Positions 3 to 2,429 of a stretch of DNA of 64,000 nucleotides are shown one piece after another; position 1 is the stretch's first letter, and every line of letters starts with the position of its first letter. The notes below the pieces were generated by a model. It was not told the origin of the DNA. It ran no database searches and saw nothing but the letters and a program-made list of their open reading frames with translations. Source of the DNA: an uncultured Gammaproteobacteria bacterium (lineage in GTDB: Bacteria; Patescibacteriota; Patescibacteriia; SBBC01; CAIJZX01); NCBI GenBank assembly GCA_964518425.1, contig CAZFGG010000001.1, positions 54,597 through 118,596 on the forward strand, given 5' to 3'. The position numbers and the translations under genes are program-made.

Positions 3-2429
3 ACGCAGTGGATTTTCTTACAACTCTTCAAACAAGGCCTGGCCTATGAAAAAGAGGCGCCAATTTGGTGGTGTCCAAAAGACAAAACCGGCTTAGCCAA
101 TGAAGAAGTCATCGATGGCCGATGTGAGCGCTGCGGACATACAGTCGAGCGGAAAATGCTTCGACAGTGGATTTTGAAAATTACCGAGTACGCCGACCGC
201 TTGCTTGAAGGGTTAGACAAGGTTGATTGGCCAGAAGGCATAAAAGCACTGCAACGAAACTGGATTGGGCGAAGCGAAGGGGCAGAGATTGACTTCTTCA
301 TCGATGAACACAAGGTAACAGTGTTTACCACCCGTCCCGACACGCTCTTCGGGGCGACGTATGTGGTTTTGTCTCCGGAACACCCACTCGTCGATGTCAT
401 CACAACAAAAGAGCATACGAAAGCCGTTGCCAAATACAAAAAAGACGTGGCCAGTAAATCTGACCTTGAACGCACGGCCTTAGAAAAAGAGAAAACCGGG
501 GTGTTTACCGGTGCTTACGCCATCAATCCGGTCAACAACGAAAAAATCCCGGTCTGGATTGCGGACTATGTTTTATTGTCCTATGGCACCGGCGCAATTA
601 TGGCCGTGCCAGCCCATGATGAACGCGACTACGAATTTGCCAAGAAATATGATTTGCCGATTCGGGAAGTCGTTGTGCCGTATCGACCAGATAAACGCAA
701 CCCACCGCAACCGGGCAAAAAAAACGTCGAACGCCGGAACGTTCACGCCTTCGTGACCAACCCGAAAACTGGCAAGGTCTTAGCGCTCAAATGGACCAAG
801 CATCCCTGGACGACATTTCCCATGGGCGGGGTCGATGACGGTGAAGATATCATCAAAGCGGCCGAGCGCGAAGTCCGCGAGGAAACAGGGTACAAAAACT
901 TGAAACTCATTCGTGTTCACGGTGGCAACGTTAAAGCCGAATATTTTGCCGCGCACAAGGATGAGAATCGGGTGGCCTATACACAACTTGTCAGTTTTGA
1001 ATTGAAAAATGAACAACGCGATGAAGTTGCAGCCGAGGAATTGGATGAACATGAGATCATCTGGCTTGACCCAAAAGAGATCACCCCGGAACTTATCGTT
1101 CATGCGGAATTAGATGTCTGGCTCGACCGCTTGCGAAACGACGAACCAGCCTATAGCGGCGAAGGTGTCCTCATCAACTCGGGAGAATTTGACGGTTTAC
1201 CGACCGACGACGCCAGAAAAAAAATCGTTGAGTCGTTACAAACTCATGCTCATCACAAAACACAGTACAAACTCCGCGACTGGATTTTTTCGCGGCAACG
1301 CTACTGGGGCGAACCGATTCCACTGGTCCATTGTCCGAAAGACGGAGTTGTGTCCGTGCCGGAAAAAGATTTACCGGTACTTCTCCCTGACGTCGAGAAA
1401 TATCAACCAACGGGAACTGGTGAATCACCGCTCACAGCGATTGAGGATTGGGTCAACACGACTTGTCCAAAGTGTGGTGGCCCGGCCAAGCGCGAAACGA
1501 ACACCATGCCGCAGTGGGCGGGATCGTGCTGGTACTACATCCGTTTTACTGATCCGCACAACGATCAAGCTATTGCTAGCGAGGAAGCAATGAAAGCCTG
1601 GCTACCGGTTGATCTCTATGTCGGCGGCGCCGAGCACGCCGTGCTCCATCTTCTGTATTCCCGATTCTGGCATAAGGTATTATTTGACATTGGCGCCATC
1701 CCAAAAGAGGTTGGTGACGAGCCATTCGTCAAGCTAAAAAACCAAGGTCTTATTCTCGGGCCGGACGGCGAAAAGATGTCCAAGTCGCGAGGGAACGTGA
1801 TCAATCCCGATGACATCATCGAGCAGTACGGCGCGGACACGCTCCGGATGTACGAAATGTTCATGGGTCCGTTTGAGGATGCCAAGCCCTGGAGTAGCGA
1901 AAGTATTATTGGTGTCCGACGTTTTTTGGAACGCGTTTGGGTGGCCGCGGAAAAAGTCGATCGCGATCAAGCCGGTCGGTCGAGCTACAGTCATCGCGTC
2001 GTCGCGGCGATCACCAAAGGCATTGACCATTTCCATTTTAATACCTGCGTCAGCGATTTGATGAAGTGGAGTAATGAATGGCGAACAGCCGAATCAATCG
2101 GACAAGAAGATTTTGAAGTCTTTCTCAAACTTCTCTCACCGTTCGCGCCCCACCTGGCTGAAGAACTCTGGCAGCGCCTCGGCCAAGAAACAATGTTAGC
2201 AAAAGAATCTTGGCCAACATTCGATCCGACCCTAGTCCAAGAGGATACGGCGACTATTGCTGTTCAAGTCAATGGAAAACTCCGCGCAACATTGGAGCTT
2301 CCGGCGGGAAGCCAGCAAGGTGATGTTGAATCAGCTGCCAAAGCGGAGCCAAACGTGAAAAAATATCTGACTGGCCAGCCCAAAAAAGCTATTTTCGTGA
2401 AAGATAAGTTGGTAAATTTTGTAGTGTGA
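3..2429 (+). CDS. leuS: Leucyl-tRNA synthetase, 5'-truncated by the window edge; contains an internal Nudix-box-bearing insertion
   Basis: Frame 3 translation from nt 3 reads ...QWIFLQLFKQGLAYEKEAPIWWCPKDKTGLANEEV... continuous with ORF 156..2429; conserved LeuS blocks VPAHDERDYEFAKKYDLPI, GEGVLINSGEFDGLP, YKLRDWIFSRQRYWGEPIP, KMSKS (KMSKSRGN). TGA stop at 2427-2429. Confidence 0.9.
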   Translation, partial: TQWIFLQLFKQGLAYEKEAPIWWCPKDKTGLANEEVIDGRCERCGHTVERKMLRQWILKITEYADRLLEGLDKVDWPEGIKALQRNWIGRSEGAEIDFFIDEHKVTVFTTRPDTLFGATYVVLSPEHPLVDVITTKEHTKAVAKYKKDVASKSDLERTALEKEKTGVFTGAYAINPVNNEKIPVWIADYVLLSYGTGAIMAVPAHDERDYEFAKKYDLPIREVVVPYRPDKRNPPQPGKKNVERRNVHAFVTNPKTGKVLALKWTKHPWTTFPMGGVDDGEDIIKAAEREVREETGYKNLKLIRVHGGNVKAEYFAAHKDENRVAYTQLVSFELKNEQRDEVAAEELDEHEIIWLDPKEITPELIVHAELDVWLDRLRNDEPAYSGEGVLINSGEFDGLPTDDARKKIVESLQTHAHHKTQYKLRDWIFSRQRYWGEPIPLVHCPKDGVVSVPEKDLPVLLPDVEKYQPTGTGESPLTAIEDWVNTTCPKCGGPAKRETNTMPQWAGSCWYYIRFTDPHNDQAIASEEAMKAWLPVDLYVGGAEHAVLHLLYSRFWHKVLFDIGAIPKEVGDEPFVKLKNQGLILGPDGEKMSKSRGNVINPDDIIEQYGADTLRMYEMFMGPFEDAKPWSSESIIGVRRFLERVWVAAEKVDRDQAGRSSYSHRVVAAITKGIDHFHFNTCVSDLMKWSNEWRTAESIGQEDFEVFLKLLSPFAPHLAEELWQRLGQETMLAKESWPTFDPTLVQEDTATIAVQVNGKLRATLELPAGSQQGDVESAAKAEPNVKKYLTGQPKKAIFVKDKLVNFVV

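Follow-up and report, generated by a model that had tools for sequence, protein, structure and literature searches.

Few enzymes are as conserved as aminoacyl-tRNA synthetases, and in leucyl-tRNA synthetase (LeuRS) the CP1 editing domain, which handles the acceptor end of the tRNA, is a drug target (benzoxaboroles). Synthetases that carry extra domains and Nudix fusions are both already known kinds of protein. We analysed a 64,000-nucleotide stretch of contig CAZFGG010000001.1 (positions 54,597 to 118,596, hereafter the window), which opens with a leuS gene whose LeuRS product carries a Nudix hydrolase domain nested in CP1. The canonical bacterial enzymes of Thermus thermophilus (2BTE/1H3N), Escherichia coli (4AQ7) and Aquifex (CP1 domain 3O0A) share with it the fold, the domain order, the TIGR00396 family and the HIGH, KMSKS, Thr-rich and Asp motifs; the solved LeuRS structures that it matches have at most 880 residues and hold no counterpart of the insert. 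NCBIfam NF040702, 'isoleucine--tRNA ligase, N-acetyltransferase domain-containing', likewise describes a class I synthetase with an extra catalytic domain, and matches weakly through the synthetase core. It differs in having a GNAT guest and an isoleucyl-tRNA synthetase host, whereas here a Nudix domain lies within CP1.

By full-text literature searches (LeuRS or aminoacyl-tRNA synthetase with Nudix, candidate phyla radiation (CPR) or Patescibacteria), we found no description of a Nudix domain nested in LeuRS or in any other synthetase, and the initial annotation, which knew of no account of this architecture, holds to that extent for the searchable literature. The proteins are nonetheless public: their records go by 'leucine--tRNA ligase' or 'class I tRNA ligase family protein', and the Pfam matches precomputed for them include NUDIX, so that the novelty is one of recognition and interpretation rather than of new sequence.

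The features of leuS in the window on which the comparison rests are the following.

3..2429, plus strand: leuS coding sequence, 5' end lost at the window edge, stop codon at 2427-2429 (from the translation)
255..692, plus strand: larger, N-terminal portion of the CP1 editing domain (profile positions 1-146 of Pfam PF13603)
327..344, plus strand: Thr-rich editing-site motif TTRPDT (read from the translation)
615..629, plus strand: editing-site motif HDERD with conserved Asp residues (from the sequence)
672..1160, plus strand: nested Nudix hydrolase domain, about 163 aa, residues ~361-523 of the full-length protein P0152
825..893, plus strand: Nudix box GGVDDGEDIIKAAEREVREETGY, the helix for catalysis and metal binding (from the sequence)
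936..971, plus strand: family-specific motif AEYFAAHKDENR, which includes a conserved aromatic pair 17-18 residues past the Nudix box
1143..1247, plus strand: C-terminal remainder of the CP1 editing domain, immediately 3' of the insert (AYSGEGVLINSGEFDGL...; match to 3O0A chain residues 174-208)
1773..1787, plus strand: KMSKS motif of class I synthetases (from the translation)

Frame 3 of the plus strand is open throughout, from the window edge to the stop codon at 2427-2429, which bears out the initial annotation in its claim that the frame is continuous and the extra domain translated within LeuRS. The 808-aa partial product corresponds to residues 138-945 of the 945-aa NCBI protein P0152 at 100% identity; the mechanically generated list of open reading frames (ORFs) begins the gene at an internal ATG (nt 156) because the 5' end of leuS lies outside the window. 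Even when truncated in this way, the product scores 839.5 bits against NCBIfam TIGR00396 (leuS_bact), above the equivalog cut-off of 548.4, and Pfam PF13603 (tRNA-synt_1_2) matches with E=2.1e-68, its best stretch covering residues 85-230 of the partial protein. Across a set of 73 LeuRS sequences, both with and without the insert, T246, T247, R248, D250 and T251 of the TTRPDT motif, H342, D343, R345 and D346 of the HDERD motif and K728, M729, S730 and K731 of the KMSKS motif are invariant. The HIGH motif (HVGH, residues 51-54) falls before the window begins; it is present in full-length P0152 and likewise invariant in the 73 relatives. By these marks the host is a complete bacterial-type LeuRS with intact aminoacylation and post-transfer editing sites, and since the HIGH, KMSKS, Thr-rich and Asp positions are invariant, the predicted enzyme is expected to retain both leucylation and editing.

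The LeuRS flanks HDERDYEFAKKYDLPIREVV and GEGVLINSGEFDGLP are both found in the product, and about 160 residues that include GGVDDGEDIIKAAEREVREETGY separate them, as the translation of nt 825-893 and its surroundings confirms for the initial annotation. The box had been said to fit the Nudix pattern exactly; it matches G-x5-E-x7-R-E-U-x-E-E-x-G-U at every position except the last U, which is Tyr, and in the wider family this position is Tyr in 53/64 sequences and Phe in 11/64. Run on the isolated 165 aa, Pfam NUDIX (PF00293) gives 62.4 bits (E=5.8e-17; gathering cut-off 21.1), a match far above chance, and in the whole protein this match interrupts PF13603 at profile position ~146 of 185. The insert lies in the CP1 editing domain, starting some 15-20 residues downstream of HDERD (nt 615-629), and not in the leucine-specific domain that had been proposed as the landmark for it. 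Its upstream flank aligns to residues 321-366 of T. thermophilus LeuRS, and the two flanks match chain residues 123-166 and 174-208 of 3O0A, the isolated editing domain of Aquifex aeolicus LeuRS, leaving a flank-to-flank gap of 7 residues there versus ~154-163 here. Canonical LeuRS was first supposed to have about 25 residues here; the closest insert-less orthologue, P0156, has ~28 residues between the flanks.

Within the Nudix box of insert-bearing LeuRS, G412, G413, E427, E430, E431 and G433 are conserved in 64/64 sequences, R426 in 63/64 and E418 in 62/64. The mean pairwise identity among these 64 proteins is 45% for the insert and 58% for the remainder, so that the Nudix domain is under constraint, if slightly less so than its host. 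Outside the box, the inserts (44 compared) share the strongly conserved family motifs NPPxxGKKxVxR, LKWKKHPWTTFPMGG, AEYFAAHKDxNR and HAExDxWLxRL. The aromatic pair Y451/F452 falls 17-18 residues after the box and occurs as EYF, EFF or EYY in 33 inserts. The domain is acidic, with a pI of 5.7 in the window, a family median of 5.5 and a net charge of about -6.

To gain structural insight, an AlphaFold2 model of P0152 was computed from the 73-sequence alignment. The model has a mean predicted local distance difference test score (pLDDT) of 89.8 and a predicted template-modelling (TM) score of 0.83, with pLDDT 88-96 in the insert; the insert modelled on its own reaches pLDDT 93.9. By Foldseek, the whole model matches the bacterial LeuRS structures 2BTE and 4AQ7 (E ~1e-82, TM 0.72-0.82), and the insert is in neither. 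The insert model matches Nudix folds at TM 0.55-0.67 and has their alpha/beta/alpha sandwich. The prediction thus shows the insert as an independent, confidently modelled alpha/beta/alpha Nudix fold projecting from the editing domain; whether it forms such an excursion was a check that the initial annotation had proposed.

Scanning one genome per GTDB species with an insert-only alignment, we found the insert in at least 198 species-level genomes (tblastn-confirmed stretches). The best 80 of the 198 (54-70% identity) were inspected locus by locus: nearly all are metagenome-assembled genomes labelled Patescibacteria, Paceibacteria, Kaiser-, Wolfe-, Yanofsky-, Taylor-, Wildermuth-, Kerfeld-, Uhr- or Moranbacteria, and at all 80 the match lies within a single long stop-free frame, mostly of 900-1300 aa unless the contig ends. 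Regular expressions recovered a HIGH-type motif at ~67 of these loci, an exact KMSKS at ~48 and a strict Nudix box at 75. The Nudix box starts 61 (+/-1) residues past HDxRDxxFA at every inspected locus where both were matched, and in most of them the distance from HDxRDxxFA to the downstream NSG is ~178 residues. To judge from these relatives, the source organism of the window would be a Kerfeldbacteria-like member of the Patescibacteria. PF00293 is also among the precomputed domains of 91 of the 120 nearest LeuRS clusters. Around the insert in the window there is neither a discontinuity in GC content (0.48-0.54) nor a pair of flanking direct repeats. The insert is one homologous, long-resident insertion in the LeuRS of Patescibacteria, and we regard an in-frame, folded and conserved Nudix domain nested in CP1 of a functional LeuRS as practically certain.

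A recent mobile element was considered and rejected, the insert being homologous across species and free of a GC break or flanking repeats. An intein or other self-splicing insertion was also rejected: Pfam finds no Hint or intein domain, and the junctions read VVP/YRP and DEP/AYSG. Some LeuRS-Nudix records (L002, L004, L005, L032 and others; P0183) are labelled 'uncultured Gammaproteobacteria', 'Thermodesulfobacteriota' or 'Nanoarchaeia archaeon'. Because their proteins cluster with Patescibacteria LeuRS, these labels look like submitter, binning or annotation errors. At one further locus (L086 1500-1988), the tblastn match to the Nudix family contained no long ORF in the single frame translated with table 11; a frame offset, frameshifts or another genetic code could account for this.

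P0156 (817 aa, 77% identity) and P0172, the orthologues nearest to the LeuRS of the window, have no insert. The order of genes in the window (1-5013) is the same as in the insert-less orthologues (L082, L083), namely leuS, Sua5/YrdC, an MFS transporter, a KsgA/RsmA methyltransferase and a giant gene encoding a protein of ~1,850 aa. Natural pairs of LeuRS with and without the Nudix domain therefore exist in otherwise syntenic genomes, and they offer natural material for experiments. Since these close syntenic orthologues manage without the insert, it is not required for leucylation, and the comparison shows it to be dispensable for LeuRS. No Nudix gene, which would be a sign of fusion from a neighbour, lies within +/-8 kb of the insert-less leuS orthologues. 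Within the LeuRS clade of the window, a neighbour-joining tree mixes proteins that have the Nudix domain with proteins that lack it, while other clades are almost uniformly Nudix-plus. The loop at the insertion site is hypervariable among insert-less relatives, at 31-72 aa.

An exhaustive phmmer search with the insert against 1.84 billion representatives returned 443 clusters at E<=1e-3. We compared 151 proteins, comprising 148 of the 150 listed phmmer matches and three fragments from a word-indexed search with the insert only. LeuRS-flank similarity was found in 111 of the 151, and one is a prolyl-tRNA synthetase (ProRS). Most of the non-LeuRS members are free-standing Nudix proteins of 150-200 aa that match the insert over the entire unit, N-terminal strand and HKDENR motif included; the family motif AEYFAAHKDENR is conserved in the free-standing homologues as well, with K96, N99 and R100 invariant among them. 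These proteins (P0021, P0040, P0051, the L084 gene and others, from metagenomes) are 33-40% identical to the insert of the window by alignment, with P0021 at 44% by phmmer. They differ from it in being encoded as independent genes and in the C-terminal helix, QxYLW versus HAExDxWLxRL in the inserts. A single-protein metagenome scan for free-standing homologues gave 6 loci, of which L085, when translated, proved to be a LeuRS insert again. In L084, the one clear free-standing gene, the coding sequence starts right behind a stop codon and adjoins an uninformative membrane protein, and the neighbourhoods of the free-standing homologues thus gave no functional clue. Judging from the shared unit, the insert appears to derive from a Nudix family that is also found free-standing.

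The association of Nudix domains with synthetases recurs in several forms. P0155 has an insert in the same LeuRS loop that is only 29% identical to that of the window. In P0214, which belongs to the window's own clade, residues ~373-454 form a different, MutT-like Nudix domain in the same CP1 loop; because its likeness to the window insert is limited to the Nudix box (12/25 residues) and it nevertheless occupies the same position of the editing-domain profile, it suggests an independent capture at one site. Some Patescibacteria LeuRS (P0004, P0005, P0006, P0013, P0036, P0061, P0064) carry 2-3 Nudix domains. These multi-Nudix proteins use, besides the loop seen in the window, another site right where CP1 begins, after NWIGRSxGAEIxF, and some of their extra copies have an R-to-A or R-to-K change in the box. 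The Nudix family of the window insert also turns up inside the class II ProRS P0116, between the anticodon-binding and C-terminal domains, where it has an HKDVNR motif and is 33% identical to the window insert over 139 residues (pairwise E=9e-22). There are five such ProRS-Nudix clusters (P0116, P0272-P0275), and the insert-less relatives closest to them carry Woesearchaeota or Nanoarchaeota (DPANN) labels. At one ProRS locus (L090 5593-7524), the gene immediately upstream encodes a small tRNA_bind (PF01588) protein.

Other guests, mostly hydrolases, occupy the LeuRS of relatives. They include a HAD phosphatase (P0012, residues 654-808), a Ham1/ITPase domain together with a third insert (P0161), ASCH (P0197), DUF559 (P0228) and an N-terminal or internal Ser_hydrolase or alpha/beta-hydrolase domain (P0029 and others); P0158 is a further relative whose LeuRS hosts other domains. 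From their domain content, the LeuRS of the Patescibacteria lineage appears to act as a general hotspot at which domains accrete.

The closest relatives of the insert with known function are RppH/NudH and the asymmetric ApnA hydrolases (E. coli RppH, lupin 1F3Y, Aquifex 3I7U, human NUDT2, T. thermophilus Ndx1, M. tuberculosis Rv2985), which are its best neighbours in both sequence and fold. They share with it the Nudix box, the alpha/beta/alpha fold, the size and an aromatic residue ~17 residues past the box. They differ in identity (15-25%), with hidden Markov model scores far under the family cut-offs, and the insert is nested rather than free-standing, acidic, and marked by its own motifs NPPxxGKKxVxR, LKWKKHPW and HKDENR. 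The best PDB sequence match of the insert is lupin Ap4A hydrolase (1F3Y, E=1.8e-4), followed by the Aquifex (3I7U) and human (NUDT2) Ap4A hydrolases and RppH; among fold neighbours with known function are RppH (also with Ap4A bound), the Ap6A hydrolase Ndx1, Rv2985 and CT771. Another neighbour, the MutT/nudix family protein 2AZW of Enterococcus faecalis, is a free-standing structural-genomics protein at 15% identity with no assigned function, and so is of no help in assigning a substrate. By the curated models, the guest is a member of the Nudix superfamily that falls in no curated subfamily, and the host an ordinary bacterial LeuRS.

We propose that a whole Nudix domain from a free-standing-type family became nested in-frame in a hypervariable surface loop of CP1, about 20 residues past the editing Asp motif, where it would form an autonomous and catalytically competent excursion with Mg-binding REx2EE glutamates. 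Because these glutamates are invariant, we infer that the module is an active Mg-dependent pyrophosphohydrolase. It would hydrolyse a small nucleotide polyphosphate, most likely a dinucleoside or nucleoside polyphosphate of the Ap4A/Ap3-5N type; Ap4A was among the substrates suggested in the initial annotation, and a substrate of this kind is compatible with the weak sequence and fold neighbours. Aminoacyl-tRNA synthetases are listed as producers of Ap3-5N (Table 1 of PMC7705103); such compounds would arise from aminoacyl-AMP, and the fusion would place the scavenger on the producer. This substrate class, and any coupling of the Nudix module to LeuRS, we infer; for the substrate, the evidence is weak yet points one way. 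The acidic character of the insert would suit a small-molecule substrate better than RNA. The pair Y451/F452 stands where ApnA hydrolases have a Tyr, ~16-18 residues downstream of the Nudix box, a weak criterion alone; this residue is said to have been singled out as a mark of these enzymes by Dunn et al. in 1999. Since synthetases produce Ap3-5N and the Nudix-synthetase association recurs, a bifunctional LeuRS with a catalytically competent nested Nudix domain of ApnA-type substrate class is our best reading of the locus. We hold this reading in its entirety tentatively, at a little short of an even chance.

Several points weigh against the polyphosphate assignment. The subfamily matches are weak and mostly confined to the box (~30 bits, versus RppH cut-offs of at least 116), the fold matches stay at TM 0.55-0.67, and Nudix substrate specificity is not reliably readable from sequence. 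The unrelated HAD, Ham1, ASCH and alpha/beta-hydrolase guests fit a permissive loop equally well, and the loss of the insert in close relatives shows that its function is non-essential to LeuRS.

The main rival explanation takes up these last points and holds that the domain is a pure hitch-hiker, a general house-cleaning Nudix enzyme with an unrelated substrate and no functional tie to aminoacylation, which a streamlined genome keeps in a permissive loop of a protein that is essential and constitutively expressed. The hypervariable loop of insert-less relatives, the repeated absence of the insert from close orthologues, the free-standing copies of the family and the diversity of unrelated guests (HAD, Ham1/ITPase, ASCH, alpha/beta hydrolase, DUF559) would all be as such a history predicts. 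The recurrence in synthetases speaks against it: LeuRS flanks in 111 of the 151 compared proteins and a ProRS in one, an independent Nudix lineage in the identical loop, and several Nudix copies inside one LeuRS together exceed what would be expected of a random parking site. We consider the hitch-hiker account rather unlikely, though it deserves real weight; action on RNA in the manner of RppH, a non-catalytic sensor and aminoacyl-adenylate hydrolysis are less likely.

The same recurrence, with the family nested in LeuRS CP1 (in two loops, with 1-3 copies) and in class II ProRS, and with a second Nudix lineage in the same loop, permits a bolder form of our proposal. The HKDENR Nudix family might be a dedicated synthetase partner in ultra-small symbionts, its chemistry being needed at the synthetase, where it would destroy Ap4A/Np4N or another adenylylated by-product, or act on the tRNA acceptor end. 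The host organisms of the nested domain may lack ApaH-type hydrolases. We regard this generalization as doubtful; if true, quality control of synthetases, or alarmone control, would have a layer that has so far gone unrecognised. In any case, LeuRS has here been elaborated substantially, and apparently in a way not yet described, by a second complete enzyme beside the editing site whose catalytic residues are intact in hundreds of Patescibacteria species. The second Nudix lineage, the multi-copy variants and the nesting in ProRS suggest a testable functional link between Nudix chemistry and synthetases, and the architecture extends what is known of how CPR and DPANN organisms build accessory enzymes into proteins that are essential.

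An RppH-like enzyme acting on RNA is a further candidate, in which the Nudix domain, placed by CP1 next to the acceptor stem, would remove a pyrophosphate or an NAD/Np4N cap from the 5' end of tRNA-Leu or of another LeuRS-bound RNA. The established role of CP1 at the acceptor end would be in keeping with this, and the nearest curated families are RNA pyrophosphohydrolases, the RppH/NudH models being matched weakly by 33/33 tested inserts. The best of these matches, however, reaches 30.9 bits, far under the cut-offs of 116-259 of the RppH/NudH (PRK00714) equivalogs, and the matches span only ~40-75 residues around the box. A domain that is acidic overall (pI ~5.5, charge -6) would also be unlike an RNA-binding surface, and in ProRS the same family occupies a wholly different position, the junction of the anticodon-binding and C-terminal domains. 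We judge this candidate improbable.

Nudix folds also serve non-catalytic roles, as in MutY, ribosomal protein L46 and NrtR, and the insert could by analogy be a ligand sensor or a regulatory, structural or tRNA-binding element. The R-to-A and R-to-K box changes in some extra copies of multi-Nudix LeuRS would accord with such a role for those copies. At the site used in the window, by contrast, E427, E430 and E431 (64/64), R426 (63/64) and E418 (62/64) retain the pattern of an active hydrolase, and a purely regulatory role is disfavoured because these catalytic residues are invariant or nearly so; we consider a non-catalytic module quite improbable.

An extra proofreading activity, in which the Nudix domain hydrolyses mis-activated aminoacyl-adenylates (Nva-AMP, Ile-AMP) or Leu-AMP and thereby opens a new pre-transfer editing route, would explain the location of the insert in the editing domain and the presence of the same family in ProRS, also a synthetase with a mis-activation problem. 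Hydrolysis of Leu-AMP was one of the suggestions of the initial annotation. Chemically it would be atypical: an aminoacyl-adenylate is a single-phosphate, acyl-phosphate mixed anhydride, whereas Nudix enzymes cleave nucleoside diphosphate-X pyrophosphate linkages and acyl-phosphate adenylates are the province of the HIT family. The canonical editing site is moreover fully conserved, and orthologues without the insert do without such a route; we consider it very improbable.

Finally, an artefact of mis-assembly, chimerism or frameshifting that would remove the insert from the LeuRS polypeptide has practically no probability left, being ruled out by the continuous frame and lack of a compositional break at the window locus, by the confident full-length structure prediction, and by recurrence of the same in-frame insert in assemblies produced independently by many studies (80 or more genomes inspected, with the box at its constant distance from the editing motif). 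A visibly frameshifted leuS does occur in one relative (P0002; L001 6001-6845), on a 0.83x-coverage contig of a separate, low-quality assembly.

Downstream of leuS, a Sua5/YciO/YrdC-family gene (2426-3046, plus strand; Pfam E=1.1e-40) begins with a GTG. Because this start overlaps the leuS stop codon by 4 nt, it suggests that the two genes are translationally coupled in one operon. At the level of the Rfam gathering scores, the 64 kb of the window contain no family besides those of three tRNA genes:

39235-39312, plus strand: tRNA Arg-GCG
40896-40985, plus strand: tRNA Ser-TGA
41012-41105, plus strand: tRNA Ser-GCT

Between 5973 and 23720 on the plus strand lie four consecutive giant ORFs of 1878, 1383, 1454 and 1196 aa. 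The last of these has no Pfam match; elsewhere in the series there are faint Ig-like, fn3, DUF642 and BNR-type matches, and the four probably encode surface or adhesin-like proteins of an episymbiont.

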